DNA of 63,074 nt, filler included, from Sanchytrium tribonematis (lineage: Eukaryota): assembly GCA_018985235.1 (NCBI GenBank). It is 14 parts of 14 records of this genome, joined end to end, with 100 filler letters (N's around TTAATTAATTAA, not from the genome) between each part and the next. Parts side by side here need not be neighbours in the genome. Positions count along the whole stretch, not along the records: positions 9,179 to 13,641 come from JADGIG010000720.1; 13 more parts are not named here. The stretch is one strand, 5' to 3'. Made by a program: the position numbers and the translations under genes. The notes under the pieces were generated by a model that was not told the origin of the DNA, did no database searches, and was given only the letters and a program-made list of their open reading frames with translations. Position 1 is the first letter of the stretch. Each line of letters opens with the position of its first letter. Shown here in pieces: positions 3,219-63,074 of the stretch.

Positions 3219-4239
3219 GGTTGGTTTGGCCCCAACCCCACTTAAGCGACTTTTGTTTCTAGTTCTATGCTGTCTATCAAATAAATATATTTCACGACGA
3301 AGCTCTGGTTATTTTTTAATCCACATTTGTATTGTTGAAATAGTGGTAGTCAGTTCTTCTTCTTGAAGGGTTTTAGAAGCGTTATTGCCATTCTCATGAT
3401 ATTTATCAATGAATTTTGGCTTCTGCTTCATGGTGAACTTTTTACGTATTCCTTTAGATTTATGTTTGCCGATTGGGAGGTTACCAGATGTCATGAAAAA
3501 TAAAAATAAAAAATTCAATTTCAATGCAATTACAGACTCCGATGCATGGATTAACTTTAGATTTTACAAATCAGACATCTGTGAATTGCAGGATTTACTG
3601 GAAATCCCTAGCACAACTAAATTATCTAATGGTTCAGTAGAATCCGGATTAGTTTGTTTATGTGTATTTTTAAAAAGAATGTCTTACACGAACAGATTAA
3701 GCGACTTGTTAGTATATTTTGGAATAGAGCAGTCCAAAGTAAGCCGTATTTGTGATTTTGTGCTTAATCATATTTATTATAACTTCAAATGGCTTCTTGA
3801 TTTCCCCGAACATCTTTTTACCCATGATTATATCACTCTCGCTCAAAATCAGCTTGGATTAGAGCATGCTGTAATTGGATTTATTGACGGTACGGTCAGA
3901 TTTATTCCACGCCCATCAGTGAATCAACGACTTATGTATAATGGTCATAAACGTCACCACGCATTAAAATATCAATCTTGCATTTTGTGGAATGGGCTTA
4001 TTATTCATTTGAGTGAAAAGCATGATATATCAATATTACGTGCATTTGATTTGTTATCAAAATTAGAACATTTTCAAAACATATTTCCAAATATCAAACT
4101 ATTTGTATATGGTGACCCAGCTTATCAAGTTGGAAAACATATCATTTCGCCCTTCAAAACAACAAGCAACACCCGTGAAATGCGATTGTTTAATACTTGC
4201 ATGAGTTCTTTTCGAATCTGTGTAGAATGGGGCTTTGGA
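3219..4239 (+). mobile_element. PIF/Harbinger DNA transposon remnant with 3'-truncated DDE_Tnp_4 transposase (ORF from about 3409)
   Basis: Motifs GFIDGT, YNGHKRHHALKYQ, HD, YGDPAY, FN..MS..RICVEWGFG. The segment before HD (HLSEKHD) looks shortened, and homology stops abruptly at the GAA run. Candidate left end TAA|GGTTGGTTTGG at 3216-3229. Confidence 0.85.
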
Positions 4240-4290
4240 GAAGAAGAAGAAGAAGAAGAAGAAGAAGAAGAAGAAGAAGAAGAAGAAGAA
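4240..4290 (+). repeat. (GAA)17 / (TTC)17 microsatellite
   Basis: Perfect 17-unit repeat read directly. Confidence 0.97.
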
Positions 4291-4368
4291 GGTATTTACT
4301 AACAAAACAATGTCATGGCTTTGTATTCAATCCTATAATAAATCACTCCTTCTTCGCTATATACATAT

Positions 4369-5606: not shown

Positions 5607-6863
5607 ATGCATAAATTGGATCAATTGGAAGCAACATTAAGAGCGTCCAAAAAGCAAAATGATGGTAGAGACGATCAGAACAAATTATTGAGTCTCCAAA
5701 ATTGGAAAAGAAGAATTTTTTATTGGGATTTGAAGCCAGAAGGCTATGAACAATTCTGGGAAGATCCAAATTCATTGAAAGAGACACAACATTTTCCATT
5801 GCCTTTTCATGTAGGAGTAGCCCGTCAGAATGGTGACACTATATTACCGACATTAAATTTAGCATATGGTTTTATTTTGCAACATTTAAAAAAGAGTAAT
5901 TTTAGCTTGCGTGAGGCAAAAAGATTAGTTGTTGTTAAACTGCCGAATATTCAAAAGTCCTTAATGAAAGTGTTTTTGTCTGAACATTTGAATGAACATG
6001 CAATTAATCGAATTACTGATCAATATATCGAATTTGCTACTATGGATGATGCAACAAATGCGTTGAAATTGAATGGTATGGAAATTGGAAATGAGAAAAT
6101 AGAATTTAAAAGGCCTGATGCGTATGTTCCACCTACCAAAGAGGACTTGCTACTGCCAGATCACGTGGAGGAAAGTGAAAATAAGTTAGTCATTACAAAT
6201 ATTCCGCTCAATTTAAATGAAGAACAAATTAAAGAATTATTATCAACAGCTGGTACTTTGAAGGCATTCGAACTTGAAAAAGGACCTCACGGACATCACA
6301 AAGGCCATTGTTATTGTGAATATGAAAATTCAAATATTACTGAAATCGCCATTGCTAATTTGAATGGCATGGAAATATCAAATAGTCGACTAGGAGTTCA
6401 GAGGGCTTTGTTTGGTAGCAAGTCAACATATTGTCCTGCGAAAATGCTTCCTAATGGTATTCCTCAAGGCTATCCAGACTTTAGCAAATTGTTTTCAAAA
6501 TTGGAATGTCCAAAATCCAAAATTTTATGCTGTTATAACTTACTGGATGACAGTGACGTAGTCAATGAAGACACAATTAAGCGAGTCAGGAAAGATGTCA
6601 TGTACGAATTACAAGATTTCAAACCAATTTCAATTGAAATACCAAAACCAAATACTTGGATTGATCCTGATAACCCATCGAGTGTGCTTGAAAAAATTGG
6701 CGCCCCTAAAATATTTGTAGAGTTCAAGGACGAGGTAGATGCAGAAAAAGCAGGAAATCATTTACAAGGAAAAATGTATGAAGAGAGAATGGTTTTGTGT
6801 ACATGGTTTCCGGAGCAATTTTGGAAAGCCAAGAATTTTCATCCATTGGAAAAAGAAGAGTGA
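5607..6863 (+). CDS. U2AF2: Splicing factor U2AF large subunit (U2AF65/Prp2), divergent
   Basis: ULM WDLKPEGYEQ...FPLP, RRM1 ending KRPDAY, RRM2 (LNEEQIKELL..G.LKAF, CEY, LNGMEI..VQRA) and C-terminal UHM (KIFVEF). Confidence 0.9.
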   Translation: MHKLDQLEATLRASKKQNDGRDDQNKLLSLQNWKRRIFYWDLKPEGYEQFWEDPNSLKETQHFPLPFHVGVARQNGDTILPTLNLAYGFILQHLKKSNFSLREAKRLVVVKLPNIQKSLMKVFLSEHLNEHAINRITDQYIEFATMDDATNALKLNGMEIGNEKIEFKRPDAYVPPTKEDLLLPDHVEESENKLVITNIPLNLNEEQIKELLSTAGTLKAFELEKGPHGHHKGHCYCEYENSNITEIAIANLNGMEISNSRLGVQRALFGSKSTYCPAKMLPNGIPQGYPDFSKLFSKLECPKSKILCCYNLLDDSDVVNEDTIKRVRKDVMYELQDFKPISIEIPKPNTWIDPDNPSSVLEKIGAPKIFVEFKDEVDAEKAGNHLQGKMYEERMVLCTWFPEQFWKAKNFHPLEKEE

Positions 6864-9183: not shown

Positions 9184-10223
9184 ATGCTGATGTTTAGTAT
9201 AGATGGGATGCGGTATTATGTTAATCCACTTCGATACTCCGCTACCCAAGCTTTGCAGTCTGAAAGAGTTTTACGTTCTCAATTAATTTCTATTGGTATA
9301 TCAGACCCAACAGAGCAAGAATCTCACATTTCTCCAGTTGATTTCGCTTATGTTGTTGAAAGATGTTTAAATAATTTAATGCTCTGCATATCGCAACAAC
9401 CTCAAAGATCTATGAAATGGTACTCTTCGATTTATACCTTGAGCTGGTGCTGTTTTATTTTAGGAACAGATCGCATTGTTTCTTCTGCATTTTTGTATGA
9501 GATGATAGAAAATGCTTTTTGTGAGGATTTCCTGACACTTTTTCAACTCTCTGGTCATAAATCTGAAGAGTTTTTGGACTTTTACAAGGTAAAAGTAGAA
9601 AAAAATTATCAATCTAATCAAGATGACCGAAATTTGCAACAATTTTTAAAGTTATTAGTTGATGCAGAGAACAATCGCACTAATCTAAGAAAAAGTATGG
9701 ACGGTTCACCATGTCTTAGCTTTGAAAAACAATTAAACACTGATATTGAAACTATGAACTTAACAATGGATCGAGTACTGAGGAAAGACCAAATTCCTAA
9801 AATCAAAAACCTCTCTGAAATGAACTGCAAATTTCATATTGGAGAGGTTATTTACCATGAAAAATATGGTATTTTTTATTTTATCTAGATTATTTTGGAG
9901 TTATACACGATTATGACCAGGAATGTAACGAAAGTCCTGACTGGCAACGAATCATGCAAGTTCAAAATCTTATTTACAAAAATAATCAACCGTTTTATCA
10001 TGCAGTAGTTCCAAATGACCAATCTAATCGATATATAGCCCAAGAAAACATGTGCCACGCCAAAGATGACAATAATTTGAAGCAATTATTTCTAGATATA
10101 CTGAGATCACAAGACGATTTTGTTTTTCTTTGTGGCCAGTTCTTTACAAAATTTGATATGGAGACATTCACGTTCATTTGTAACCCAAAAACAAAAGCAA
10201 AATTTCAAATGGAAAACTCATAA
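9184..10223 (+). CDS. FBXO21-like protein (SirB1-like region plus YccV-like domain); 5' partial; one 20-nt intron 9869-9888
   Basis: Splicing joins FHIGEVIYHEKY to DYFGVIHDYD...QPFYHAVV...RYIAQEN, the YccV/HspQ signature. Confidence 0.8.
9869..9888 (+). other. 20-nt GT-AG spliceosomal intron
   Basis: GTATTTTTTATTTTATCTAG; removal deletes an in-frame stop and restores the conserved domain. Confidence 0.88.
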
Positions 10224-10523: not shown

Positions 10524-11592
10524 ATGAATTTTGATTACGAAAATTTTCTTCTCACAAACGCAGACCGTATTCACGGTATTGAAAACGCATTAACTGCAGT
10601 ATCCTATTTACTACCAGGAAGATTTAAAGATGCGGACATCGCCAGTGAATTACTGTACATGATCCTTCGATTTGTAACACTTTACCACGACAAAATTATT
10701 GGTAAAATAGCTCATAAATTTAAATCGAAATCTACACATGCTAAATATATAGAACACGTGAGTCAGAACAAGTCGTATAATTTGCTATCTCATTTACTTA
10801 CTGGGATTGAATATTTAGAAACTGTTTTCGAAATGATTGTCCAAAGAAAAGGCTCAGAAAAAGCGAAGTGGAATTTTATTACGAGCCTAGAAACAGTCAA
10901 ATTTGTGATTAAAATGATAATATTAAAAGTTAATAAGAAAAGAATGCTTGTTTATCCTTATGTAACTGGCAGAGAATTGGACCCACAAGAATTAGCAGGA
11001 AGTGAGGAAAAAATATCCACTTGGAAAGGTTCTAGAAGCAATTTAGAATTTAATACTTTAAAAACAATGTCAAAATTTGTAAAGCAAGATTCAATGTATG
11101 ATTCTGATAACTTATCTAGTAACGTAGGTATAGATGAGTACATCAGATCAAAAGCTTTAGATGCTGTTGTTACTGGTCCAGAAGAGTTAGTTCCATCTCT
11201 GAGGGGCTTGTATTTGGGTGGTGAAATAGTTTCGCATTTACGTCCTCTGCTTTATGGCAATTTTAATTAATATAGTGCTTTTGATACGGAAATATGGCAG
11301 GACTTCATGGATTCCTTGGATTTGTTCTCTCGCTATAGATAGTAGCTGTTATTATGTTCGATCTAATCTGAAAGAAAATTCGACTCTCGCTAAAAATGAG
11401 AAAAATAGAAGATTTTACTTATTATTATTATATTTGGTGCGTTCTCCATTTTATCAAGCATATACCAAGCAATATGTGGAATCCATCAAGAACTCCTGGG
11501 AAAATAAGCCATTAGTGGGAATGGTGTCAACATTAATTCAAGACTATCAACCACTCTGGGAATCTGTCTTTTACTACATCAACTTGTCGTAA
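10524..11592 (+). CDS. PEX16: Peroxin 16; one 19-nt GC-AG intron 11257-11275
   Basis: LLPGRFKDADIASE, LYHD.I, WKG.RS, spliced RPLLY-V-LLIRKYG, W.PW, YLVRSPFY, DYQPLWE. Confidence 0.92.
11257..11275 (+). other. 19-nt GC-AG intron
   Basis: GCAATTTTAATTAATATAG; removal joins two PEX16 ORFs in frame with no extra residues. Confidence 0.85.
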
Positions 11593-14763: not shown

Positions 14764-14776
14764 AAAACACGTGAAA
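14764..14776 (-). promoter_or_regulatory. E-box motif AAAACACGTGAAA upstream of RPL42
   Basis: The same 13-mer lies at the same distance upstream of RPL28 (31540-31552). Confidence 0.65.
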
Positions 14777-23274: not shown

Positions 23275-24004
23275 ATGTCAATGATTTGGGATCCAAGTAT
23301 TTATAGCAATCATGAAGTTTTTTATGACCAAGGCGGTCGCATACTGGAGCTATTGGACCCCAAGAGACATGAATGTATTTTAGACATTGGTTGTGGTAGT
23401 GCAGAAACCACAGACAAGATTGCAAAAGTTTGCAATCGAATTGTTGGTGTAGATAGCTCCGCGGAAATGATAGAGAGTGCAAATAGCAGATATAAATTAG
23501 ACTTGCGATGCATAGATGCGACCGAAATCGAATTTAGGGATGAGTTTCATGCCATTTTTTCAAATGCATGTTTTCATTGGATACAAGATCATCACTTATT
23601 AGCTCAAAAAATGTACAGCGCGTTAAAATCCGGGGGAAGACTCGTTGTTGAATTTGGGGGCCAAAGGCAATATCAAGACCATTCATAATGCATTGTGCAA
23701 AGTCTTAAAAAATCATAATATAAACATTCCAAAAGTTTGGTTTTATCCAACAATATCTGAATATTCCAGTATTTTAGAAAAAAATGGGTTCACAGTCATC
23801 TTTTGCAAGATATTCGACAGAGAAACAATTCTCAAAGGCGAAGAGGGAATGAGAATTTGGCTTAATATGTTTGGCCGTGTATTTTTAAAAGATGACGCAA
23901 ATTTGATTGAAGAATGCATAAACATACTAAAACCTGCTTTATATCAAGACGGAAATTGGAAAGCGGACTATAAACGACTTCAAATAATTGCAGTGAAGCA
24001 ATAA
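23275..24004 (+). pseudogene. Bacterial-type class I SAM methyltransferase (Tam-like), split by one extra base in G5 run 23656-23660
   Basis: ILDIGCG, IFSNACFHW, GGRLVVEFG[+1]AKGNI, WFYPTISEY, W.ADY.RL. Confidence 0.8.
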
Positions 24005-27536: not shown

Positions 27537-30500
27537 TTAACTCAAATCCTGATTTTCATTTCTAATAATATTGGTCACCTCTCGTCTATCTTTGAGCCAG
27601 TCTACAAATGACTGCTTAGATTTATCCAGCGAATAATCGCAAAATACAATTAGAAAGAAATAACGAATTAAATAGTTGATTGTCACCTGGTGAAGCTGAG
27701 AGTATTGTTTAGTTTGCGGGTCCATCTGCCTCAATTTACATTTGAACGTGTAAATCGCTTCTCTTAAATTTTGAAGATGTTGATTTGCGTCAATCGCTGT
27801 ATCTACGATAGATTTAGCGACCTTGCCTTGGCTCAATACACTCATGAGCTGTAATATAATTCTATATTCACCCCGAAGTAAATGAAATTCTTCCACTTCG
27901 TCGTCATAAATTTTCAGATTGTCATTTGTGGAACTTTTGTACATTTCAGATAAATAATCGCTCCTGACTAATTTTAAGATACATGCAATAATCATTCCTG
28001 TGCTGGTTCTTCCTCTTCCCATTTGACAATTAAAAACTAAATCATTTCCATTTGCGCTATTAATTCTATTGGTAAGTAAATCAAAAACAAGTGGGATCGG
28101 CGCTTGCTCATCAGTTATTGGGATTCTCAAATAATCCACTTGGTATCCGAGGCTCTGAATTTTTGCAAACATTTCCAAAGGCGTCAAAATGTCATTTTCT
28201 GTGATTGTTTGCCAAACGGCATTAATTGTGAACCCGGAATCTGTCACTACTTCTTCGTGTAGTAAGACTCGTCCACCGTATTTTGCTAATTCTTCTTTAA
28301 GATCGATTTTGGCATTATATTCCATTAATTCGACTCTTTCTTTGGCAATTCCAGTGATTTCAAGATTCTTCAAAGGCTCATGAAATTCGCGGAGTACATA
28401 TGGCTTATTTAAAACATAAATGACGGGTTCCTCTCGTAAAGAAGTCCAATAGACTTTCCCCTTGATACGATCTATCGTATTTTTAATACCATCAAAAGTA
28501 GGCATAGCTACCCCATAGCAAGAATCTGGGTCGTGGTAAGCGTGGACAAGATCCTTGTATTCAACTCTTCTATAATTCGGCGCACCAACAATTCGATCTA
28601 AAAGAGTCAATTTTTGACAACCTGGAAAGCAATCGTCTTTCAGGATTGTGTTTTGAGCCAAAACTTGCCCATTTCGACTCTTAACAACCTTGAGAATTTC
28701 ATTTGTTAACGCAAGCCCATCTCCAGGCAAGATTTTATCTATAGAAAGCAAATCCTTGATGGAAGCTTTAGAAAGCTCTTTGAACATTTGCAAAATTTCT
28801 TCATGTTGTTTAAGCCACTGACCAAACTTTATCAAATAAGCATCTGGTGCATTTTGGTCCAAATAAGATTGAAAAACAATCAATATAAAATATCTCTCTA
28901 GATTCAAAACTCCTTTTGCAATACATTCAGCTCTAATTTTTTCGTTATTTGTGGATTCTGCTTCAACTCGATACTTTTCAATTGAGTCTCTGATATTAAA
29001 AATTTGAGAATTATTATCAATGACATCGTCCACCATTTTCTTGATTTCCAGACCATTTTTGATAACTCTCAGTAGCCCATGAATGCTCTGATAATTTATA
29101 TTTGATATTTTATCAAGATTTCCTCTTGTTTTATTGTGCAGCCAATTAAAAACCATTTGGGACACCACCAACACCATTGTAGATCGACCAACGCCCATTT
29201 GACAATTAACTACGAAAACCCCCTGATTATTATTCAAAACACTTAATATTTCATCAAAATCATTTTCCTCTGGATATCCTTCAGCGGTTATGGGAACTCG
29301 AAAATAATTAATATTTTCAAAAATTTGTTTAGGCGTAAAAATATGATCTTGCTTCACATCTTCCCATTTTGCTTCGATATCGTGATTGACTTCATTGTGG
29401 AGCAATATCTGATTCCCAAATTGCTGAAGCTCCTTGACGATGTCAACTTTCAAGCGCTGTTCCATTAATTCCAGTCTTTCGCAATTTATACCACTGTAAG
29501 TATTTATATTTCTAAGAGTACTACTCTGGTCTCTGAGAACGTAAGGTAGTCCATTGATATAAATGAGAGGTTCTTCTCTCACATTTATCCAAGTGACCTG
29601 CTGATTTGGAAATGTTTCTCTAATTTCACTTAAAATAAATTGTAATCCCTTAATTGTAGGTTGAGCGCAACCATATAATGGATAGCCTGGAACTCTTCTG
29701 AAATTAGAAACAAGACTAGTCTGTTTCCCCCAGAAATCCACTTTCAGAATTGTGTTGGGACCTAAAACTGTGCCACTTCTGTTCTTGACGCAGTACATTT
29801 CTGCATCACTTCCGGAGGCAGTGGATAATGCAGAAAGATTATGAATAGGTCTATATAAATCTACATTGGTGTTTTTTGGGAATATAGAATAAATTTCTGG
29901 ACGTTCTTTAAGCCATACTGAAAAAGAAAGTGATGGATTTGTAACCAAATATGACATCACAACTAGCAACGCGTAGTACCTCTCAAGTTGCGCTTTTCCC
30001 TTATATAAATCTACCTCATCCTTAGTGGTGAAATAGCGTATTCTATAAAACAAAATTCTGTCTCGAATATTAACAACCTGGTCACATTCGTCGATAAGCG
30101 CATCAACAATTTTTTTAATATGTACGCCTTTATCTAATACTCTACTCAGCTCTAGTACGATTTGATAATTACCATTAACTGAATTAATTAAATTTTCAAG
30201 CAAGGAACTTCTAGTTATTGCAAATTGTATGGCACTTGCTTGAAGACCTTCCTCTAATACCTTCATCAGTCTTATAAGCGATTTGTGTTGGAAATCCGTC
30301 TCTTTTGCCAAATCATTCAGACTTTCAATTGACCGTTGACCAACGACAGGGCTAAAATCATCATTTTCCTTTGCCTTTCGAATCATCAAAGCTATGATCA
30401 TACAAAAAGTTGTTCTACTTGCACCCATCCCACAATTTATCACAATTGGATCATCCACATTTTGAGCCATAAAAGCATTAATTAAAGTTTCAACATATAT

Positions 30501-31061
30501 TTCGACAAATCCTTGTTCTGGACTTATGGGTAATCTGATGTATTTGATGTCGAATCCTTGATTTATAAAATGCTCAACAAGTTCTCTGGGAGTTTGCACA
30601 TGTTCCACAGCCATATAACAAGGCACAATTTCGCCATTAATTTCATCGTGCACAAGTAGCAGATTGTTGGTTTTGATTTCTTTAAGAATATCCAGCTTTA
30701 AGCGATATTCCAATTGTTCTAATCGTTCGGCAGCTATTCCGGCAAATTTTAATTTTCTATAAGGCTCGTATTCATTTCTCAACAAGTACGGCATCCCATT
30801 TATATAAACTAGGGGTTCTTCTCTGGTATTAACCCAAAGAATGTTTTCTTTAAGCAAGGTTAAAATTGTGAGCCACCCAGTTTTTGTTGGCTGACTTACC
30901 CCATAGATATTGTGTATGCCTCTGAAATGCTTTGCACCCTGAAGATGGTCCCCTTTTGCAATTGAGTGGAATAAGTCAGATTTGAGTATAGTTTGTCTGC
31001 TGAGCACAGCACCTTTTCTATTCTTCACTATAGAATTAACAGCCTTGAGATCAAAATCCAT
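27537..31061 (-). CDS. Paladin-like triple PTP-like (phytase-type) phosphatase
   Basis: Three repeats of LK.D.F / NFR / REEP..Y.NG.PY.LR / NC.MG.[GS]R[TS] motifs. Confidence 0.92.
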   Translation of the reverse strand: MDFDLKAVNSIVKNRKGAVLSRQTILKSDLFHSIAKGDHLQGAKHFRGIHNIYGVSQPTKTGWLTILTLLKENILWVNTREEPLVYINGMPYLLRNEYEPYRKLKFAGIAAERLEQLEYRLKLDILKEIKTNNLLLVHDEINGEIVPCYMAVEHVQTPRELVEHFINQGFDIKYIRLPISPEQGFVEIYVETLINAFMAQNVDDPIVINCGMGASRTTFCMIIALMIRKAKENDDFSPVVGQRSIESLNDLAKETDFQHKSLIRLMKVLEEGLQASAIQFAITRSSLLENLINSVNGNYQIVLELSRVLDKGVHIKKIVDALIDECDQVVNIRDRILFYRIRYFTTKDEVDLYKGKAQLERYYALLVVMSYLVTNPSLSFSVWLKERPEIYSIFPKNTNVDLYRPIHNLSALSTASGSDAEMYCVKNRSGTVLGPNTILKVDFWGKQTSLVSNFRRVPGYPLYGCAQPTIKGLQFILSEIRETFPNQQVTWINVREEPLIYINGLPYVLRDQSSTLRNINTYSGINCERLELMEQRLKVDIVKELQQFGNQILLHNEVNHDIEAKWEDVKQDHIFTPKQIFENINYFRVPITAEGYPEENDFDEILSVLNNNQGVFVVNCQMGVGRSTMVLVVSQMVFNWLHNKTRGNLDKISNINYQSIHGLLRVIKNGLEIKKMVDDVIDNNSQIFNIRDSIEKYRVEAESTNNEKIRAECIAKGVLNLERYFILIVFQSYLDQNAPDAYLIKFGQWLKQHEEILQMFKELSKASIKDLLSIDKILPGDGLALTNEILKVVKSRNGQVLAQNTILKDDCFPGCQKLTLLDRIVGAPNYRRVEYKDLVHAYHDPDSCYGVAMPTFDGIKNTIDRIKGKVYWTSLREEPVIYVLNKPYVLREFHEPLKNLEITGIAKERVELMEYNAKIDLKEELAKYGGRVLLHEEVVTDSGFTINAVWQTITENDILTPLEMFAKIQSLGYQVDYLRIPITDEQAPIPLVFDLLTNRINSANGNDLVFNCQMGRGRTSTGMIIACILKLVRSDYLSEMYKSSTNDNLKIYDDEVEEFHLLRGEYRIILQLMSVLSQGKVAKSIVDTAIDANQHLQNLREAIYTFKCKLRQMDPQTKQYSQLHQVTINYLIRYFFLIVFCDYSLDKSKQSFVDWLKDRREVTNIIRNENQDLS

Positions 31062-31539: not shown

Positions 31540-31552
31540 AAAACACGTGAAA
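31540..31552 (-). promoter_or_regulatory. E-box motif AAAACACGTGAAA upstream of RPL28
   Basis: Identical to 14764-14776 with near-identical spacing to ATG. Confidence 0.65.
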
Positions 31553-36752: not shown

Positions 36753-39700
36753 ATGTCAGAGGTAAACTTTTTCGAGCTTTCTCAAATTGAACTCGAAGAC
36801 CAGCTGGCTGCAGCTGAAATTCCATGCGAGCCTTTGACTATTCAAAGAGTCCATAGAGAGGAAGAATTTGAATTAGATATTTTTAAGAGTGAAGTGAATG
36901 AGGAATATCAATTAATTTTAACTCTTAGAAAATTATATCAGCAAGGTCTCCCATTCAGAGCCTTTCTATACGCGTATAGATGTAGTGCATTAAGTGTTCC
37001 ACAAGTCAAATCTCACGATCAGGAAAATAAAAGTGAAATGTATCAAGCAACATACGAGGTATTAAAACCAAATGTGATAGAAATGAAAAAATTTATGAAG
37101 TTTTGTCTTTCAGTTGTCTCTACGTTGAAAGAAATCACAGATAAGGCTTCAAAGATGACCCCTAGCACAGATTTATTAAGGGAATTAGGTGTTTCCTTAG
37201 ATATGGTTTTGACGCTAGATTGCTTAAAAAATATGAAGGCCTCATTGAACAATGACTTTTCATTGTATAAGAGATGCTTGTCTAATTTGGGACCTACCGT
37301 GGGACAAGAAGAAATGATGGAAAACAATCAATTATATTTCTTTTTAGGTAACAAAGACTCGTTTATGCTAGCGTTGAAAGAAGAGTTATTCAAGATTCCC
37401 AGCTTTGAGGATGTATTGATTGAAGTCATTAATAATCAGGTTGATTTCTTTGAAAAAGGAATGTTTCTATCTCCATCGGAAAAGTATGTATTGTTGAGAT
37501 CAATTGCAGCAGCGTCTGTTATAGTACACGCTGAAAGGAAAGAACCCTCAAAAGAGTTGCTTTTAAAACTCAAGCGTATTAAATATGACAAAGTTTATAA
37601 AGCTTTGAAGTCAAATCAATACGTTCCTTTATTTGGAGAAATGACATTACAAACCAGTGTTTTGTTTAGAAAAACGACAATCGCGGATCAATTTAAGGAC
37701 GAGGTGATTCAAAATAATCTTAATTTACTGAGTCAATTGGAACAAACCCAGTCAGATTTTCAAAATATTGCAATGAAATTGAAAATTTTTGTTAATGTTT
37801 ATGACCACACAACCGCAGCTTCAGTCCTTAACGCAGAAACAGTCAGAAATATGTCAAATACAATGGTTGATGGTCTCAAGTTGATTGTTCAATGGACGTG
37901 TGTCATTCTCGAACACAACGCTTCCAAAATTGTAAATCCAGCTGACCCTGAAAAAAATCAATGTCCTCCAGAAGCCAAAGAATACGAAAGAGCAATACGA
38001 TATAACTATAATGAAACTGAAAAAGAGACACTTCTTCACTACATCTACATGGTTAAAACTTTGAGTCAACTTTTAAGCGAGGTGGAATTAAAGTATTCAG
38101 ATGTCATTCGAAAAACTGTTTATATTACGTATCAGGAGTTTACTAGAAATACAGTGGACAGTCTGATTTCATTTGCACAGAAGAAGAAAAAGAGTTATGC
38201 TTCAATATTGCAAAGTATACAAAATTTAGGTAGTGATATCTTAAATCGAGGCCAGGCCTACAGAACTGTCGGACCAAGCAACACCCAAGTGTTCTTGACC
38301 CGAATGCTTGTCCACAAATGTCTCACTGAAAGTAACAAAGGCCAAGGTGGTTTATTTTCAAAAAACGCAAATTTTTCCGATGTTCAATTGGAAGAAATAT
38401 CGAAATTCGTAGACCAATCTTATGCTTTTGAAGCGATGTTGGATTATAAACATCATTTAAGATTAGCATCCGATTTGTCACCTTTGTGGTTCAAAGAATT
38501 TTACTTGGAATTATCCAAAGAAGTTCAATTTCCAATTGAATGTTCCTTGCCTTGGATTTTAATGGATTTCATGCTGTCCCAATCTTCTCCGGAATACACT
38601 GAATTTCTTCTAGTTCCGTTTTCCATCTACAATGATGCTGCTCATGAATCTTTGTATAAATTAAATTTAGCTTATCTATTTGATGAAGTGGAGGCGGAAG
38701 CGAACTTGGTGTTTGACCAATTCATTTTCAAATACTCCGAAATCGTATTTTCACATTTCAAGACCAGATCTTCAAGGATGTTGATTGAACAAGAGATTGA
38801 CTATGTTGATCCAAATAGCAAAAATAAATCCCCAACAGGAAACACCAAAAAACCATTTCATCAAGGTGATTTGAGAGCATTTCACACATTACATGAATCT
38901 ATATTATCTCAAAGAAGATTTTATTTGCTTGGGCGATTCATTGATATTCGAAGAGTGATGGGTCAATGTATGAATCAGTATTTTAGAAAATCACTTGATG
39001 TTGCGATTAATCGATTTGAGGCCAGTGACTTAACGTTCTCAGTACAACTTGGTTTTCTAATTAGATGCAATAGACTTGCTCATAGATTAGCATCTGAGAT
39101 TATGCCCGTTGATCCATTCGAAGACATGCTTAATGAAGTGGACGAAAGCAGCACATTAGGCGCAATGGGTGGAAGGTTGTTCGCCCATACATACTCGGAA
39201 ATCATTAATGATATCATGCCAAATTATTGCTTTAGTAGTGTAACAGAGAGATTTGTCAAGTCAATGACTAGCAAAAATAAGGCTCGGCCAAGTGCAAAAG
39301 CACCTGTTATTTATTTGTTTGGTACAAAAGCTTTGAATTTATATGTTAATAAGCAGTTTGCAGGATACAAGGGTTTTATTGGAGTGTCTCCACACTTTGC
39401 GGCCATTTCCAAATTGATTGGAAAGAGGCAGACCGCATCACTGATAAACGAAATCGGTAATGTTTGCACACAATTAATCGAGTCTCATATTACGCCTTAC
39501 ATGAAAATTTTGATTAAGGGATTTCCTTCTTTGAAATTACCATCAGTGGAGTACAAAACTCAGGGTGTATATCAATTTTTTATTTCTGCGCTTGCTTCGT
39601 TACTTAAATACCAAGACCTGCCTCAAGTGGTCAATGCTTTTAAGGAAATTGGAAATGGTATTGCTTGCTGTAAGTTATTAGAGGAATCATTGGTATTTTT

Positions 39701-40389
39701 TATTAAAGTAGACAGTAGAATCGGTTATCAAAGGAATGACAAACTTTGACTCATTGGCTTCGAAAGACCTTGGTTTTGGACTAGAATTAGGTATCACACC
39801 GAAAGATATCGACGATGTAGCAACCTCTTCTTTGAAGGGAGTGAAAGATTTACATTTGAGTGAAAAAAGGATCAGTGTCTTGACTACGAACCAAAAATTG
39901 TCGGTGCTACCAGCTGTTCTATCGAATATTAAAGTTGCATTAGAAAAAGCAACTCAGTCGTGTTCCGCTCTAATATCTAAATCACCATCACCTTTTGACA
40001 CACCAAATGATTTTGCACAGATTTGGTGTTTTATTGAATTCGTATATGCCCTACCTGCGATTGGGCAAACATTAGCTCATCGTCAAATAAGCGGTGATGG
40101 AGTCATATGGGCTGGCTGTACATTCATGGCATTACTCGATTTTCCTGAAAAACACAATTTATGCTCGTTCTTGTATCATCTACTGTATACTCGAAGTATT
40201 GAATTATATAAAGAAGTTACATCTTCAACCTTACCTGACGAAACTGAAGGTGTCATAACAATGGCGGCTTACATCAAACATACAAATGATCAAATTTATG
40301 ATTTTTTAAATTTGAATTTCAAGGGTGATTTTGACAAGCAGATCCTTTTTGATGTTCCTAACAAAAGAGAGTTTGAAGACAAGAAATAA
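36753..40389 (+). CDS. CYFIP1: CYFIP/Sra1 (WAVE regulatory complex); one 19-nt intron 39693-39711
   Basis: LKNMKASLNNDFS.YKR, YERAIRYNY, DLS.LWFKEFYLEL..VQFPIE.SLPWIL, YNDAA, GDG..WAGC in exon 2. Confidence 0.95.
39693..39711 (+). other. 19-nt GT-AG intron
   Basis: GTATTTTTTATTAAAGTAG; removal gives LLEESL-TVESVIKGMTNF and fuses the two CYFIP ORFs; the alternative 16-nt cut would create TAG. Confidence 0.88.
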
Positions 40390-40862: not shown

Positions 40863-41612
40863 ATGACATCCAAGGTGCTTTCAGATACTGTAGCAAATAG
40901 TAGCAGTATTATTAGGGAGATTAAATCCTTAGATAAATTATTTAGATGTGACTATATTTGCAATTATATCGGAGTTTCTTCAATTGATGGTGATTTGGCA
41001 CTGGTGATGGAATATATTGACAATTATTCACTGTATGAGTGGCTGCACACATTTCCAAACCACATGGAAGACCCAAAATCACTCACAAATCCACAAATTA
41101 GAGAAATTCAACTTGGGATTGCCCGAGGTTTAGAGTACATGCACAATCAAAAGATTGCCCACAATGATGTTAAATCAGCCAATATCATGCTAGATAGTCA
41201 ATTTAATCCCAAATTAATTGATTTTGGAATGGTCAAAATTATTAGCACGACAACGAGATCAAGTGGAAATTCTAGCAAGAAACAACTGGGAACAGATTAT
41301 TGGAGGGCACCAGAGTATTGGAAATATAATGAAGAGGTTGCTGACACGCGTGCTAAATATCCGTATGCAGGAGATGTATTTTCATTTGGAACTGTTTTAG
41401 GGGAAATGGCAACAGGAAAAATACCATGGGAGGGACTTACAAGCAAGATAATTGAGGATTCAATTTTCAAAGGCATGCGTCCATACTACGAACATCAATT
41501 AGAATCCAGTTTATTTAAAATAATTGAAGGTGCTTGGCAGCAGGAACCGAAAGACAGATTGGGGATAAATGAGGTATTGGGGCAATTAGAGAAGATATTA
41601 AAAACCGATTAA
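40863..41612 (+). CDS. TKL-like protein kinase, 5' partial
   Basis: HNDVKSANI, DFG, GT.YWRAPE, DVFSFG. Confidence 0.9.
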   Translation: MTSKVLSDTVANSSSIIREIKSLDKLFRCDYICNYIGVSSIDGDLALVMEYIDNYSLYEWLHTFPNHMEDPKSLTNPQIREIQLGIARGLEYMHNQKIAHNDVKSANIMLDSQFNPKLIDFGMVKIISTTTRSSGNSSKKQLGTDYWRAPEYWKYNEEVADTRAKYPYAGDVFSFGTVLGEMATGKIPWEGLTSKIIEDSIFKGMRPYYEHQLESSLFKIIEGAWQQEPKDRLGINEVLGQLEKILKTD

Positions 41613-41675
41613 AATAATAAATGATGAATAAATACGACTTGATCCAATATTTTTAGTCTATTTTTTTGAAACAAA

Positions 41676-42751
41676 ATGAATTCTCATGGAATTAGTCAAT
41701 CTGCTCTTTATAGTTCTTCTAATATACTAGAATTAGAAACCAATTTTTATGATATGCAATTACCTGCATCTGTCCCAGATCAAGGTTATATAGAAATCAT
41801 CTTAAATGACTCTAAAAATGCCATTTCATCCAATTTTAAAGTCAATCAAGATGCCGCAACCATACAATTTATCCAACTACCACAAAACATGTATAGGATT
41901 GTCATAAATGAAGATCCATTAAATTTAGAGGGTACAGATGAATGGTCTATTAAATCCGTTAATGATGGATTTGTAATCATTTCAAATGCACATGGACATT
42001 GTTTAAGTGTAAATGATCATGAATTGGTGCTGTTGAAAGAGACTGATTTGAAAGTGAATCATTTATGGACGATTCTCCCATTTTCAAAATTAACTCCGGA
42101 AACCAAGCACATCAATAATAGAATGAGTATAGGATCTATATCTAATCTAATTGGTATAGATATATACAGGGCACTTTGTAAATCCATAAAAACAGTGCAT
42201 ATTGATTTATTTGAAGCTTGTTTCATGATATTACTCAATTTTGTGATTATTGAAGACATTATCCGATATATCAATTCATTGACACATTTACAAGATCATT
42301 TATTACAAATTTATCAAAATATTTCCAACAAACTCATTCAAATCTTATTAAATTACTATATTTATAAAACTTTAAATGAATCCCAAATTGTAGTCGAATT
42401 AAAACAATGCACAGATGAATTAGCTGATATTTTCATTGGAAAGTTCACAAATGACAAATTAATAGCCACTCAGTATTTTAATAAAGCAGCAAATGCGAAA
42501 ATCATGACGCATTTCAACATTTAGAAGTAGCAGCAAATATGCACTTTAGCAACGCATTTGAAGAATTGATTGAATTTCATAGATATGACGAAAAGAAAGT
42601 GTATTGGTGCTGTTTAATGGGTGCTAAATATGGGAATAAACTCAGTTTGCAAATGCTGTCAAGTCGTTATAAAGATGGATCGTCTCATTATTGTAAACAG
42701 AATGTGGATAAATCTATTGAATATAGAAAATTGGCAGAAGAATTGGGATAA
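41676..42751 (+). pseudogene. Sel1-repeat protein with beta-rich N-terminal domain; frame break near 42490 (deletion or 17-nt intron)
   Basis: C-terminal half colinear with the kinase-Sel1 paralog at 42829; continues in a second frame to KSIEYRKLAEELG*. Confidence 0.6.
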
Positions 42752-42828
42752 TTGAATAAATGTTGCAAATGGAGGAGCATCTTTTAATTTCGTAATATTT
42801 TTTGATTCTCCTTCATTCTCCTTTACAA

Positions 42829-44766
42829 ATGCAGATGGATCCAGAAGAATTGAATAATTTAGAAGTAAGAGCGGCTTTGAAATTAGGAAAGACTATAGAA
42901 TCTCCTGAGACATTACAAGATGATAAATCTGATAAATTGCAAACTGATCAATTGAAAGCTAAAATAACAGTTTTAGAGCAAGATATTGGTAATTTGGACG
43001 GCTCTGTTGAAAAACTGAACCTTGATTCTAATAATGGATCTGTATTAGAAGCCACCAAAACTGTGAATTCTCAAATTTCGACTGGGGAGAAGAAATCAGC
43101 AGGATCGCGACTCATTGACTATATAAGTGATATTCAGATTGATACAAATAGTCCACTTGGAAGCGGTGCATATGGTGCAGTCTATTTGGGAGAATCAAAT
43201 GGTGAAAAAAGAGCCATTAAAATATTCAAAGATGTGTTGTTTATTGACCCTCAATGCACACAAATTACATCAGATACCGTCTATTTCAGTCGAGAAATCA
43301 TCAAGGAATTAAGGGCATTTGAGAAATTGGCAAATTGTCCAGAAATTTGCAAATATTTTGGAGTCACATCCATTGATGGACATTTAGGTGTCATTATGGA
43401 ATATTTAGACAATTGTTCACTTCATACATGGCTCCATTTAATGCCAAAAGCTGATTTAAATCCAAAATCACTCACAAATCCACAAATTAACAAAATTCAA
43501 CTTGGGATTGCCCAAGGTTTAGAATACATGCACGACAATGAAATAGCCCATAATGATCTTAAACCAGCCAATATCATGCTAGATAATCAATTTAATCCCA
43601 AATTAATTGATTTTGGAATGGTTAAAATTATTAATTCATCCTACAAATCAGTCCACAGCTCTAAAGAATTAAAATTAGGCACAGCTAATTGGAGAGCCCC
43701 AGAGTATTGGCAATACAATGAACAATCTCATCAATATCAGAATCAATTTCCATTTGCAGGGGATGTTTTCTCCTTTGGAGTCATTTTGGGAGAAATGGCC
43801 ACCCGTCAAATTCCATGGCATCATTGCAATCATATTGGACCTCAATTGTTACAAGGCATTAGACCATATTCTGAGAATCAAATGGATCCCAATTTATTCC
43901 AAATTATTGAAAATGCATGGCAACAACATCCAAAACAAAGAAATTCAATATCCATGATTCTCAATCAATTACAATTATACCAATTTGATTCTCACACTAT
44001 CACTGATTTATACAATATCAATGGTATTCAATTATTCAGATTACTCAAGAAATCCATCCAACACGTCCAATCTGAATTATTTGAGAAATGTCTTTTAAAA
44101 TTAATCAAGTACACCACTTCAAATACAATCAAGACATATTTAAATCTATCTGATTTACGTCCACAAATGACTCTATTAGCAGCACAAATCTCTAATCCAT
44201 TCACAATTGCATTAATGAAATATTATCAAATTGGATTTCAATCCACAAACAAGGATATATTCGAGTCATTTACTACATGTCAAGATAATTTATCACTTGT
44301 ATTTATTGGATTATGCCATAAAAATGGACGTGGCACTGTCAAGAACCCATTAAAAGCATTTGAAATGTATCAAAAAGCATCCGATTTAAATATACCAGCG
44401 GGTCATTATCACATGGGTTGGTGCTATAAAAAAGGTACTGGATGTGATCAAAAGGATGAAATGGCATTAAAATACTTTAAAATGGCTGCATTATCTCATT
44501 TTAGCAGTGCGTATTTGAAAATTGGATATTTTTATGGAAATGGGATTTATGTGGATTTAGATTATGAAAAAGCATTTTATTATTATGAATTGAGTGCAAC
44601 TTATGGCAATTCACAAGCGTATAACAATTTGGGAACTTATTATAGATATGGAAAAGGATGTGAAAAGAATATTGGGAAATCTATTGAAAATTATAAAGTG
44701 GCAATAGAATTGGGATATGAAAAAGCACAAATACGACTAGATGAATTATGTGCAACAATAAAATAA
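42829..44766 (+). CDS. TKL kinase with C-terminal Sel1-like repeats
   Basis: LGSGAYGAVY, AIK, HNDLKPANI, DFG, APE; repeats such as AYNNLGTYYRYGKGCEKNIGKSIENY. Confidence 0.92.
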   Translation: MQMDPEELNNLEVRAALKLGKTIESPETLQDDKSDKLQTDQLKAKITVLEQDIGNLDGSVEKLNLDSNNGSVLEATKTVNSQISTGEKKSAGSRLIDYISDIQIDTNSPLGSGAYGAVYLGESNGEKRAIKIFKDVLFIDPQCTQITSDTVYFSREIIKELRAFEKLANCPEICKYFGVTSIDGHLGVIMEYLDNCSLHTWLHLMPKADLNPKSLTNPQINKIQLGIAQGLEYMHDNEIAHNDLKPANIMLDNQFNPKLIDFGMVKIINSSYKSVHSSKELKLGTANWRAPEYWQYNEQSHQYQNQFPFAGDVFSFGVILGEMATRQIPWHHCNHIGPQLLQGIRPYSENQMDPNLFQIIENAWQQHPKQRNSISMILNQLQLYQFDSHTITDLYNINGIQLFRLLKKSIQHVQSELFEKCLLKLIKYTTSNTIKTYLNLSDLRPQMTLLAAQISNPFTIALMKYYQIGFQSTNKDIFESFTTCQDNLSLVFIGLCHKNGRGTVKNPLKAFEMYQKASDLNIPAGHYHMGWCYKKGTGCDQKDEMALKYFKMAALSHFSSAYLKIGYFYGNGIYVDLDYEKAFYYYELSATYGNSQAYNNLGTYYRYGKGCEKNIGKSIENYKVAIELGYEKAQIRLDELCATIK

Positions 44767-50627: not shown

Positions 50628-52562
50628 TTACCATTTGGAAGCGTTTTGCATTTCAGATCTTCCAATGTTGGTCACAGCCACTGTTTCTTCAATCAAATCT
50701 TGATCAAGTGGCTCTTTTGAGTCCATAGCCAATGCAACTGCTAGTCGAACAGCATTTTTAATTTGTCGTCCATTCAACGGGTATTCTCCCAACTTCTCAT
50801 AATTCAATTCTTTTACCTCACAATTGACACGAGCAGTCATGTTTTTCCAAACTTGACTTCTTGCTTGAGGTGTCAATGAGGTATATTTTAAAGCAACGGT
50901 GACTCTACTCTCTAAAGCAGGATCAAATTCTGTCACTCTGTTGGTGGTCAAAAATAATATACCAGGATGATATTCCAATAATCTCAACATAACACAAGTC
51001 ATGGCATTTTTCAAAATATCATTGGAATCTCTTTTTTCCAAAAACACATCGGCTTCATCAATTAATGTTAGAGCATTCCAACCGGAACATAATTCCAATA
51101 TTTCAGCCAATCTTTGTTCCATAGTGGTTGGATCAGTTCCAAGCTCTCCCATAGTGACATAATAGAGAGGCTTATGCAAAACTTCAGCAATAGCTTCAGC
51201 GGTTAATGTTTTACCAACACCAGCTGGCCCATGTAGTAAAAATATGGAACCACCGCTTTTACCTTCAATGATATCCTGGACTTGATCGCCTCCAAATCTT
51301 ACCAATGCGCGAATTAATCTTTTTCGTTTTGGATCCAAAACCAACTCATTAAAAGCCGAATCATTAAATTTAATTGGTTTTAATCCTTGGACTAAAACGT
51401 GACACCAATTTTTGGATTGAAAACTGAATCCGACGAGAGCTGGCCAAGTAACACCAAGTAATTCTTTTGGCACGGAACTCAAAATGAAAATACTATCAGG
51501 ATTGCTGCTAGATTCACCTAATGATTTTTGCTCATTTTTATATCTCTTATATCTTCCAGTAATCTCAATTAATGCATGTGTGGCATCATCCATTCCTTGA
51601 GATGCATGGTGGCCTAAAGCAGCACCTCTGACAACATCAATCATAATTCTACCAGGTGTTTGGACGATGTTTGGCTTACTTTGATTTTTAGCATGTGAGT
51701 GCAAAAAGACACAACCAGCATCGTGTTGAAGGTACTTGGATTCACCTTGTCCCAATGCCACGTATTTTTCACCACTTTGTACAAATCTTTTCAAAATAGC
51801 TTCATCTACTGGCGCATAAAACATTTCATTTATCTTTCTGTTTGCTTCTCCCATCCATCTGGAAAGAACGACTTCGAATTGCACCACAGTAAAATCTGCC
51901 CCTAGTGTTACAACGTACTGCAATTCCAAATGAAAACTTTGCTCAAATCCAAATAAAGATTTGCGTTCTTGGAAATAGGATTGAACTACTCTAAATCCTG
52001 CAGGGACTCCAAGTGAAGTAATGCCACGTACAATCAATCCTGGTTTATATAACTCAGACAAAGCATCAAAAACAATTGCGTTGTCTTTGATAATTTGAGC
52101 ATAATATTCCAATTGTGACTTGTGGACATTTCTGATTTCTGCTTTAAGCTCATCTAAACCCGGGACAGCTAATGGCGTATTTGGTAATTTGATCTGAAAC
52201 CCTAAACCACTCAAGCCTTGGACAACTTGAAATTTGATGTATCTGTTAAAATAGATATCATCCTCAGGCACTTTTTGCTCAATCCCCTTATTATATTCAT
52301 TAATCATGTAAGTCAACCAGTCTAAGCGACCAAGAATGTAAAATAAAAACTTGGATTGAATTTGACTAGCCTGCTTCATGCTTGTAAAAGAACGGACAAT
52401 GGATCTCAAGGGAAAGTGATTAGGCGTCTCACATGGAACATCAGGGAAAACAAAAATTGACTCTGAGTCATTCTTCTCAACTTTAAAATACTTTGACATA
52501 TGTTTTAGGGAGATAGGCGATAATTCGTTTAAATGTTGGAAAACGTTATAAACTCGTGACAT
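50628..52562 (-). CDS. Fungal-type single-domain AAA+ ATPase (start 52562 or 52499)
   Basis: LLHGPAGVGKTLTAE, LIDEADVFL, FLTTNRV..FDPA..SR, LNGRQIKN. Confidence 0.92.
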   Translation of the reverse strand: MSRVYNVFQHLNELSPISLKHMSKYFKVEKNDSESIFVFPDVPCETPNHFPLRSIVRSFTSMKQASQIQSKFLFYILGRLDWLTYMINEYNKGIEQKVPEDDIYFNRYIKFQVVQGLSGLGFQIKLPNTPLAVPGLDELKAEIRNVHKSQLEYYAQIIKDNAIVFDALSELYKPGLIVRGITSLGVPAGFRVVQSYFQERKSLFGFEQSFHLELQYVVTLGADFTVVQFEVVLSRWMGEANRKINEMFYAPVDEAILKRFVQSGEKYVALGQGESKYLQHDAGCVFLHSHAKNQSKPNIVQTPGRIMIDVVRGAALGHHASQGMDDATHALIEITGRYKRYKNEQKSLGESSSNPDSIFILSSVPKELLGVTWPALVGFSFQSKNWCHVLVQGLKPIKFNDSAFNELVLDPKRKRLIRALVRFGGDQVQDIIEGKSGGSIFLLHGPAGVGKTLTAEAIAEVLHKPLYYVTMGELGTDPTTMEQRLAEILELCSGWNALTLIDEADVFLEKRDSNDILKNAMTCVMLRLLEYHPGILFLTTNRVTEFDPALESRVTVALKYTSLTPQARSQVWKNMTARVNCEVKELNYEKLGEYPLNGRQIKNAVRLAVALAMDSKEPLDQDLIEETVAVTNIGRSEMQNASKW

Positions 52563-53236
52563 CCTTATATGCCCAATAGACTCTGCAACGTTAACAATCG
52601 TGTGATCAAATATTAAGTGAAAATGAGTATCTCGCAATATTTTTAACAGAATGATGTCAAGTTGACATTATGATGTTGACAATGTCAACATCATGTTAAG
52701 TTTCTCAATAATATTTAGAAAATAATTTTATTGTTCTGAACCACCAGCTGCATTCGTGTCGGAAAAATCTGGCAAATCACGGAAAAATTTGATGAGGAAT
52801 TGCGAGGACTTGGGCATAAATATAATTTGGAATTTTTGAGAATAATTGAAAGCGTAAGAAGATATAGAATAATGCAATCTATTAAATAAACTTTTCGTTC
52901 AAAAAATTTCAGGTTTTTACTAAATCATGCTCGATATATTCGAGACAAAAAAACTCGCATTCAGTACTCTATATGTTGTATAACTTCCAGTTACACTCAA
53001 AAATTAGCCTGCTTTGTACCAAATATTTCTCGGCAACCTATTTTTTTGTCCAAATTTTTCCGTGATCGTCGATAATTGTCATCATGACTAAATTCCACTC
53101 GAATATAAAAAGGAGCTTTATATGGACATGTTGCCATTATTATCTTATAATAATTGGCTGATATGATAGATAATAATAACTGCTCGGCTTAAAATTTTAG
53201 GCCATGGTATTTAAGCCGACTGTTGCAATCTCAATA

Positions 53237-53473: not shown

Positions 53474-53669
53474 AATCATTTTCCAAATATAATTGTGAAA
53501 ACTAACATTACGTTGATATCATTCTGTTAAAAACAATTAGATATACTCATTTTCACTTAATATTTGTTCACACGATTATTAACGTTGCAGAGTCTATTGG
53601 GCATATAAGGATGTCACGAGTTTATAACGTTTTCCATTTAAACGAATTATCGCTATCTCCCTAAAACAT

Positions 53670-54168
53670 ATGTCAAAGTATTTTAAAGTTGAGAAGAATG
53701 ACTTAGAGTCAATTTTTGTTTTCCCTGATGTTCCATGTGATACGCCTAATCACTTTCCCTTGAGATCCATTGTCCGTTCTTTTACAAGCATGAAGCAGGC
53801 TAGTCAAATTCAATCGAAGTTTTTATTTTACATTCTTGGTCGCTTAGACTGGTTGACTTACATGATTAATGAATATAATAAGGGAATTGAGCAAAAAGTG
53901 CCTGAGGATGATATCTATTTTAACAGATATATCAAATTTCAAGTTGTCCAAGGCTTGAGTGGTTTAGGGTTTCAAATCAAATTACCAAATACACCATTAG
54001 CTGTTCCGGGTTTAGATGAGCTTAAATCAGAAATCAGAAGTGTCCACAAGTCACAATTGGAATATTATGCTCAAATTATCAAAGACAACGCAATTGTTTT
54101 TGATGCTTTGTCTGAGTTATATAAACCAGGATTGATTGTACGTGGAATTACTTCACTTGGAGTCCCTG
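53670..54168 (+). CDS. Second, inverted copy of the AAA ATPase 5' region (3' truncated; possibly a pseudogene)
   Basis: Near-identical to 52001-52499; upstream 3-nt and 1-nt deletions break the longer N-terminal frame. Confidence 0.75.
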
Positions 54169-62057: not shown

Positions 62058-62113
62058 TAAATAATTTGTGACCAGCTTTTTGGTTCTATCCCTTGTGACA
62101 TCTTTTGTACCAC

Positions 62114-63074
62114 ATGATTTTCAATGAACAGTTTTTTTTCTTTGCAGGATTGATATCCATTCTGTTGTGCATGTATATTTGTATGTGTTATTTATCATTT
62201 AGTGAAAAAAATTTGAAAAACATGAGACATAGATTAATTTTGATACTGATGATTTGCAATTTATTTCAGGCAATGATAAGCACCATTACTGTTATTCTAC
62301 ATAAGGATGCCGCATTCTTTGGGGCATTTGTTAAAATACTATGTTCATTGCATACATGGATGACAATTACAAGTGATTTTGCATTGTGCGGAATTGCGTT
62401 CATTACTTTTATGATTTTGAAATCACCGTTTAAGAGTGATTATTATTTGCAAATGTTAAAAGATAGAGAATTCTTTATTCTGCCATTAGTGTGGCTTATA
62501 CCCCTAGGAATTACTCTATCTATTTGGGATATTAAATTTGGTAGCATGATAGGCCAGTGCATTCTACCAACAACTCCCATCTGGCCACGTATTGTGATAA
62601 AAATACTGCCCAAAATTTTGACTTGTTTTGTTTTATGCTTCTGCTACTTTTTTAGTTTTACGTGGCTTCATACGCATCAAAAAAACATGAAGAAACTATT
62701 CCAATTTGACTCTCAAAAGAACATCAAAGACGATAGGAGGTGCCCCAACTGTAGATTAGTAATCCACACTATGCAATGCCAGACTTGCGGATTTAAAAGG
62801 CCTATACCCAAACCGAAAATTGACGAGGAAGATTCTGAAATATTAGAACTTAGCAAACCCAATATTTCAAAACATAAGAATCGGTTCAAGGAATACAGAA
62901 CACTTGTATTCTTTGCATCTTACTCTCTTTTATATCTGTTGGTAACTGTTCCTGAATTAATTGTTGAAATGAGCTATATTATGGATACCTTTCCAAGTGA
63001 AGTGACATTCATCATGCACAGAACACTGAGTCAACTAAATGGTGGTTTAAATGCTTACTTTTATGGTTGGAATG
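62114..63074 (+). CDS. Git3/Gpr1 or cAMP-receptor-like 7TM GPCR, 3' truncated (not in ORF track)
   Basis: Open frame from ATG 62114 to the end: RHRLI after TM1, seven hydrophobic segments, LNG.LNA.FYG.N. Confidence 0.75.
   Translation, partial: MIFNEQFFFFAGLISILLCMYICMCYLSFSEKNLKNMRHRLILILMICNLFQAMISTITVILHKDAAFFGAFVKILCSLHTWMTITSDFALCGIAFITFMILKSPFKSDYYLQMLKDREFFILPLVWLIPLGITLSIWDIKFGSMIGQCILPTTPIWPRIVIKILPKILTCFVLCFCYFFSFTWLHTHQKNMKKLFQFDSQKNIKDDRRCPNCRLVIHTMQCQTCGFKRPIPKPKIDEEDSEILELSKPNISKHKNRFKEYRTLVFFASYSLLYLLVTVPELIVEMSYIMDTFPSEVTFIMHRTLSQLNGGLNAYFYGWN

Follow-up and report, generated by a model that had tools for sequence, protein, structure and literature searches.

Predicted ultra-short spliceosomal introns in conserved genes of a sanchytrid fungus

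The DNA analysed here, a stretch of 63,074 nt referred to as the window, consists of 14 contigs, each about 4.4 kb long, with spacers between them; its G+C content is 31–36%. Three of its genes, named from Pfam as encoding a YccV/HspQ-domain protein, PEX16 and CYFIP, are each split in such a way that one long open reading frame hands over to another frame, and a segment of only 19 or 20 nt lies at each handover. The question raised by this locus is whether these segments are introns, and if so how a spliceosome could recognize anything so short. The original prediction was of very short spliceosomal introns in a lineage resembling fungi, and the present analysis supports it, the lineage being the Sanchytriomycota. 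The reading favoured here, with a probability of about 0.9 as judged from sequence comparison, is that the three segments are major-spliceosome (U2-type) introns of a sanchytrid fungus. The first two segments are on contig 3 and the third is on contig 9, and each is present once in the window. The features are as follows.

9208..9868, plus strand: exon 1 of the YccV-domain gene; start codon uncertain, the contig begins at 9179
9869..9888, plus strand: predicted 20-nt GT-AG intron, phase 1, splitting the YccV/HspQ-domain gene; putative branch motif 9880-9884, A 9883 (-6)
9889..10223, plus strand: exon 2 of the YccV-domain gene; Pfam PF08755 from profile position 16, TIGR02097 from 17
10524..11256, plus strand: PEX16 exon 1; Pfam Pex16 profile positions 3-245
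11257..11275, plus strand: predicted 19-nt GC-AG intron, phase 1, in PEX16; putative branch motif 11267-11271, A 11270 (-6)
11276..11592, plus strand: PEX16 exon 2; Pfam Pex16 profile positions 246-347
36753..39692, plus strand: CYFIP (FragX_IP) exon 1, 980 codons
39693..39711, plus strand: predicted 19-nt GT-AG intron, phase 0, in CYFIP; putative branch motif 39703-39707, A 39706 (-6)
39712..40389, plus strand: CYFIP exon 2

Removal of the segments gave stop-free reading frames of 331 (YccV), 349 (PEX16) and 1205 aa (CYFIP), in register with homologues in all three genes; the positions of the segments and the effect of their removal are those predicted. The first gene had been described as FBXO21-like, a label drawn from the position of the domain only; the YccV/HspQ domain was recovered and the rest of the label was unsupported, as exon 1 matched no homologue and no Pfam family. 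All three segments begin with GT or GC, end with AG and are 84–85% A+T. They share A at +3, T at +5 to +8, ATT at +10 to +12, A at -6 and a terminal TAG, and positions -9 to -5 read TTTAT, TTAAT and TTAAA, a putative branch motif that conforms to YTNA in all three and to YTNAY in two, the last letter being A in CYFIP and not Y. A motif built from the three segments was matched 46 times in the window, against 48.4 ± 7.0 in 30 shuffled sequences. Enrichment of the motif was therefore rejected as evidence for introns, and the case for them rests on homology.

Close relatives were found for two of the genes: four for PEX16 exon 1 (63–68% identity) and three for CYFIP (80–84%, the next standing at 39%), with Amoeboradix gromovi represented in each set. 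In a CYFIP tree computed from 27 of 31 rows, four having been left out for want of the anchor motif, the window protein, that of A. gromovi and the two other close relatives formed a clade (100/100) that was sister to the blastoclad Sorochytrium milnesiophthora (96/94). This placement agrees with the published position of Sanchytriomycota as sister to Blastocladiomycota (PMC8371127). The window is assigned to a sanchytrid other than A. gromovi, by the tree for contig 9 and by PEX16 identity for contig 3. Sanchytriomycota are described as algal parasites with genomes of 10.5–11.2 Mb (PMC8371127). Contamination from a ciliate or a nucleomorph was rejected, as the genetic code is standard and the genes group with those of A. 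gromovi.

The database proteins of these relatives were called without splicing and read into the intron, so that their tails record its sequence. All four close PEX16 relatives depart from the family sequence right after an RPLLYG motif and end within 1–13 residues. Two of the CYFIP relatives end 6 and 18 residues past the homologous codon, while the A. gromovi protein reads through with a six-residue insert that is absent from 13 distant homologues. The intron lengths from 14 to 30 nt allowed by each peptide tail were enumerated; lengths obtained in this way are back-inferred from peptides, the freedom to choose codons raises every score, and introns of orthologues do not count as independent samples. 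As a control, the tail of the window's own CYFIP returned 19 nt. The A. gromovi PEX16 tail decoded to 19 nt, with 7/7 exon-2 residues recoverable (score 35 against 10 for the only other length), one CYFIP relative (P0009) also to 19 nt (41–44 against 4 or less), and A. gromovi CYFIP (P0008) to 18 nt, in frame, free of stops and ending in AAG (56 against 24 or less). A third CYFIP tail (P0007) indicated at least 21 nt and a PEX16 tail (P0002) at least 23 nt, these values being exact if the stop of the reading frame is the intron's terminal TAG. The tails of P0004 and P0005 were uninformative for length. GT or GC and AG were possible at the homologous site in all five informative tails; A at -6 was forced by the peptide in four of them and allowed in the fifth, and YTNAY at -9 to -5 was forced in three.

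These orthologues widen the size range from the 19–20 nt of the window to at least 18–23 nt. They also narrow what is shared, since neither ATT at +10 to +12 nor the TAG end is kept throughout; the general 3′ feature of the sanchytrid set is a predicted YTNA(Y) at -9 to -5 followed by AG. Likewise, the observation that none of the segments is a multiple of three holds for the window and fails for A. gromovi CYFIP, with 18 nt, and for the orthologue with 21 nt or more; it is a detection bias. Lengths that differ while the 3′ geometry holds are the behaviour of introns, unlike that of assembly errors or pseudogenes. Queries with PEX16 and CYFIP found no locus of a relative in metagenome, viral or prokaryote contigs. 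The A. gromovi CYFIP reading frame in the database has 653 aa and is without the N-terminal ~560 residues of the window protein, which points to a second break upstream in that gene.

The PEX16 site can be followed further. Among 149 distant homologues examined, the motif was located in 106, and it is directly followed by Gly, taken as the sign that a phase-1 GT intron has been retained, in 12 of these and in none of the other 94, where mostly Val (42) or Ala (33) is present. One of the ten Gly-bearing homologues that were looked up, that of Jimgerdemannia flammicorona (RUP22752.1), has a 27-residue (81-nt) insert at the site. The position is thus common to the four close orthologues and 12 distant homologues, and the intron site is, as read from these proteins, shared with at least one distant fungus. 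The sanchytrid PEX16 intron is probably the shrunken descendant of an old fungal intron, and the common position argues for shrinkage of old introns and not for new ones. A position shared with conventional introns of relatives was seen for PEX16 only among the three genes.

These comparisons bear on the possibility that the segments are artefacts of assembly or amplification, or lesions of decayed, frameshifted coding sequence. Such damage does occur in the window, which has a methyltransferase gene with a single extra base, a broken kinase/SEL1 paralogue and an inverted duplication; in addition, the CYFIP insert of A. gromovi keeps the frame and could represent six residues of coding sequence. 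An error or a lesion would nevertheless have had to recur at the same codon, with different inserts, in records from different sources, for 4/4 close relatives in PEX16 and 3/3 in CYFIP, in orthologues otherwise intact at 63–84% identity, and at a PEX16 site where distant homologues carry the mark of an intron. Minimal repairs also scored lower than the full cuts: the best single-base deletion in PEX16 scored 337.8 bits against 346.2 for the 19-nt cut, and the best 2-nt deletion in the YccV gene scored 35.6 against 40.9 for the 20-nt cut. This explanation is therefore considered very improbable.

Slightly less probable still is that the genes are spliced at other, longer boundaries and that the introns are not ultra-short. 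Cuts restoring the frame were scored without any splice rule (1049 for YccV, 937 for PEX16 and 1370 for CYFIP). Although GT/GC..AG ends are rare among candidate cuts near the sites (2/1260, 4/987 and 20/1848, respectively), the best or near-best frame-restoring cut falls on such a pair or no more than 1–2 nt from it. Several longer GT/GC-AG pairs also mend each frame, there being 6 (YccV), 16 (PEX16) and 24 (CYFIP) frame-restoring pairs in all in the ranges scanned; their use would remove conserved residues and would cost at least 15 bits in YccV and at least 30 bits in PEX16.

The boundaries in PEX16 were scored against a profile of 34 full-length non-sanchytrid homologues picked by eye from 150 listed. 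The next of the 16 GT/GC-AG pairs after the 19-nt cut scored 316.1 bits, and the top product among the 937 unconstrained cuts was that of the 19-nt GC-AG segment. The resulting junction aligned without gaps to the 26 full-length homologues displayed, and the Pfam Pex16 matches of the two reading frames abut at profile positions 245|246, with neither gap nor overlap.

For the YccV gene, the profile consisted of seven bacterial HspQ sequences. Exon 2 alone scored 26.5 bits, none of the five remaining GT/GC-AG pairs exceeded 25.7, and the 12 best of the 1049 unconstrained cuts were all 20 nt long. The two top cuts, which lie 1–2 nt downstream and are without GT-AG ends, reached 43.6 against 40.9; the difference is due to a Gly that they retain in place of the Asp of the spliced product. 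In the alignment to HspQ, the beginning of the domain, absent from exon 2, is supplied in register by the final 14 codons of exon 1. A plasmid search with exon 2 gave no match and its PDB matches were at chance level only; HspQ clusters of the Atlas at 0.84–0.86 provide a lead only. As no orthologue of this gene was found, its intron is the least independently supported of the three.

For CYFIP, a local profile built from distant homologues (at most 22) gave the 19-nt cut 79.4 bits, which is 0.1 bit below the best of the 1370 cuts (79.5; 55 nt, no AG), and a rival 19-nt pair at 39715 scored 74.2. The region after the junction is poorly conserved in distant homologues, a point in favour of longer boundaries; residues on both sides are nevertheless conserved in A. 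gromovi, leaving 18–19 nt between them. Scored against the A. gromovi protein as annotated, shorter cuts came out best because that protein retains its own insert.

If the segments are U2-type introns as proposed, the few introns surviving in sanchytrids have likely shrunk to about 18–23 nt, and the following mechanism may be envisaged. The 5′ end would be recognized from little more than G(T/C)A, and U2 snRNA would pair with the canonical YTNA(Y) branch motif at -9 to -5. The A at -6 would then attack the 5′ site, giving a lariat loop of 12–17 nt with a 5-nt tail. The 3′ AG, with 3 nt between it and the branch A, would likely be picked by its fixed distance from the latter, because there is no room for a polypyrimidine tract, and variation in length would be confined to the 5′ side of the branch point. 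Historically, at least the PEX16 intron would be old and would have been eroded in a parasitic lineage of small genome size, in which most other introns would have been lost.

A single splicing gene was found in the window.

5607..6863, plus strand: U2AF65 (U2AF2) orthologue, on contig 2; best PDB matches are U2AF65, E 3.5e-22

The first 60 aa of the predicted protein contain no RS dipeptides, the 200 nt upstream contain no RS-rich frame, and for RRM1 the Pfam match is weak and covers only the end of the domain. This orthologue suggests that a spliceosome is present, if contig 2 comes from the same organism. The lack of RS and the weak RRM1, seen in one predicted protein, would fit the loss of the polypyrimidine tract, and the reduced orthologue may be related to the tiny introns. 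No snRNA gene was found in the 63-kb window, an Rfam search being without match.

Removal or bypass of the segments without a spliceosome, either by cleavage of the Ire1/tRNA-ligase type or by ribosomal hopping, is given the same low standing as longer boundaries. The size of the segments resembles that of short HAC1 introns, which in some fungi are roughly 20 nt and are removed by Ire1/tRNA-ligase-type cleavage. Introns of the HAC1/XBP1 type spliced by Ire1 have twin stem-loops with a cleavage motif at both ends. No structure is common to the three junction regions, which show no shared twin stem-loop and are hardly more stable in folding than shuffled sequences (z values of -1.85, 0.12 and -0.45), and Ire1-type splicing was rejected on this ground. 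Also against a non-spliceosomal route are the GT/GC-AG ends, the branch-like motif at a fixed distance from AG while the length varies, the coincidence of the PEX16 position with a conventional fungal intron, and the U2AF65 orthologue.

A scan of the window for further introns, in which 14–30-nt GT/GC-AG cuts had to join two open stretches of at least 60 codons, gave 15 lines, three of them the known introns. Inspection of breaks in the window (methyltransferase, SEL1, 33763/33773, 35477/35511 and 55120/55095) disclosed no convincing further intron, and no longer intron was found at any recognized gene break within it. Two ribosomal protein coding sequences and a 1174-aa gene were unbroken, as had been predicted; the latter (27540-31061, minus strand) encodes a paladin-like protein with three PTP-like phytase domains. 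Six in-frame look-alikes of 18 or 24 nt were detected in 29.4 kb of recognized coding sequence, and the one in PEX16 is coding in the orthologues. Three introns in 29.4 kb correspond to about 0.1 per kb, with in-frame introns undercounted, against 1.30 in Allomyces and 3.93 in chytrids (PMC8476143, Table 1). By rough scaling from these three events, we infer some hundreds to about a thousand introns per genome.

Other features of the window were recorded. In the methyltransferase gene (23278-24001, plus strand), the frame shifts by one base near 23655-23662 and is restored by no GT-AG intron; this is a pseudogene or an assembly error. At 40863-44763 (plus strand) there are tandem paralogues combining a kinase with SEL1 repeats, copy 1 being broken at ~41610-41670 and 42485-42521 and copy 2 intact. 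Segments 52001-52660 and 53513-54168 are copies, 94–98% identical and in inverted orientation, of the 5′ portion of an AAA ATPase gene; this is a recent duplication or an amplification chimera. A 13-nt motif with a CACGTG core, at 14764-14776 and 31540-31552 (-), precedes the RPL42 and RPL27A start codons by ~35 nt and has no other occurrence in the window (two matches against 0.24 expected with one mismatch allowed); it is a candidate ribosomal-protein promoter element. A DDE_Tnp_4 transposase-like reading frame (3400-4299, plus strand) has a GAA repeat at its end, near the contig end. Two receptor genes are on the same contig, a class C (7tm_3) GPCR-like gene at 58724-60811 and a Git3-like GPCR gene at 62099-63073, both on the plus strand.

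A broader statement would be that all Sanchytriomycota splice only introns of 18–23 nt with a remodelled spliceosome (U2AF65 without RS and with a degenerate RRM1, AG chosen by distance), and that several hundred to about a thousand per genome have been missed; we give this a little better than an even chance. Were it true, these would be the shortest introns in any fungus, perhaps in any opisthokont, and the missed introns would split genes in published proteomes, possibly inflating reported gene losses. The expectation that gene finders miss such introns was borne out, as the database reading frames of PEX16 and CYFIP stop early or keep the insert. The sanchytrid genome paper reports TransDecoder proteins on contigs, with the word 'intron' in its reference list only (PMC8371127), and the same is true of a later paper (PMC10459994). 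Because these proteomes come from open reading frames called on contigs, PEX16 and CYFIP appear truncated or with false inserts, and claims of presence or absence for Sanchytriomycota may need rechecking. A search of titles and the starts of abstracts in the open literature returned no description of sanchytrid introns.

How short an intron can be and still be spliced is an open question. A 2015 database survey that included fungi placed the floor at 30 nt (PMC4675715); exceptions below 30 nt have been listed in ciliates, microsporidia and dicyemids, to which myxozoans with 22–27 nt were added in 2026 (PMC13644364). The published systems found below about 22 nt are all outside Fungi (ciliates, mikrocytids and nucleomorphs). 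A fungal lineage with introns of 18–23 nt, at positions where ordinary introns occur elsewhere, would provide an independent case with well-studied relatives. It would allow one to ask which changes in snRNAs and proteins go with extreme shrinkage, and whether the -6 geometry, as in Stentor, is a hard constraint.

The microsporidian Encephalitozoon cuniculi has introns of about 25 nt (PMC6349667). It too is a parasite within the Holomycota, and its GT-AG introns are very short and sparse; they are, however, mostly right after the ATG of ribosomal-protein genes and are spliced at under 20%, whereas those of sanchytrids are ~5 nt shorter, lie deep in the coding sequence of other genes and belong to a separate lineage. 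In myxobolid myxozoans, with median lengths of 22–27 nt confirmed by long RNA reads (PMC13644364), introns at conserved ancestral positions have likewise become extremely short, a convergent case among opisthokont parasites; myxozoans are animals, and the sanchytrid introns are shorter and are predicted from the DNA sequence. Mikrocytids (16–17 nt; PMC10245619) are similarly reduced parasites whose few introns, located in essential genes, are extremely short, but these introns are of uniform length and strongly conserved sequence, and the reduced spliceosome is known, while sanchytrid introns vary in length. The size range of chlorarachniophyte nucleomorph introns, 18–21 nt with a mode of 19 nt in Bigelowiella natans (PMC10245619; bioRxiv 10.64898/2026.07.09.736142), is nearly identical to that of sanchytrids, although nucleomorphs, the relic nuclei of endosymbionts, are rich in introns (852 in 331 genes) and the sanchytrid nucleus is that of an intron-poor parasitic fungus.

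In geometry the counterpart is the heterotrich ciliate Stentor coeruleus, with introns of 15–16 nt and a putative branch A at -6 (PMC9505925). The sanchytrid introns resemble these in their GTA start, T-rich body, putative branch A at -6, 5-nt tail, AG end and low density, and differ from them in being 18–23 nt long, with a wider spread of lengths, a recognizable YTNA(Y) and one GC donor. As sanchytrids are fungi and the two lineages are unrelated, the likeness is convergent. The proposed working is likewise that of the ultra-short U2-type introns of mikrocytids and nucleomorphs, to neither of which sanchytrids are related. A fixed 3′ structure and branch-to-AG spacing are a known convergence in intron-poor species, for which a branch consensus WCTRAYN is given (PMC2483917). 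The sanchytrid introns would be the shortest found here for any fungus, the ~25 nt of E. cuniculi being next within the Holomycota literature found; the kind is known, and the sanchytrid case looks like a new, independent fungal variant of it.
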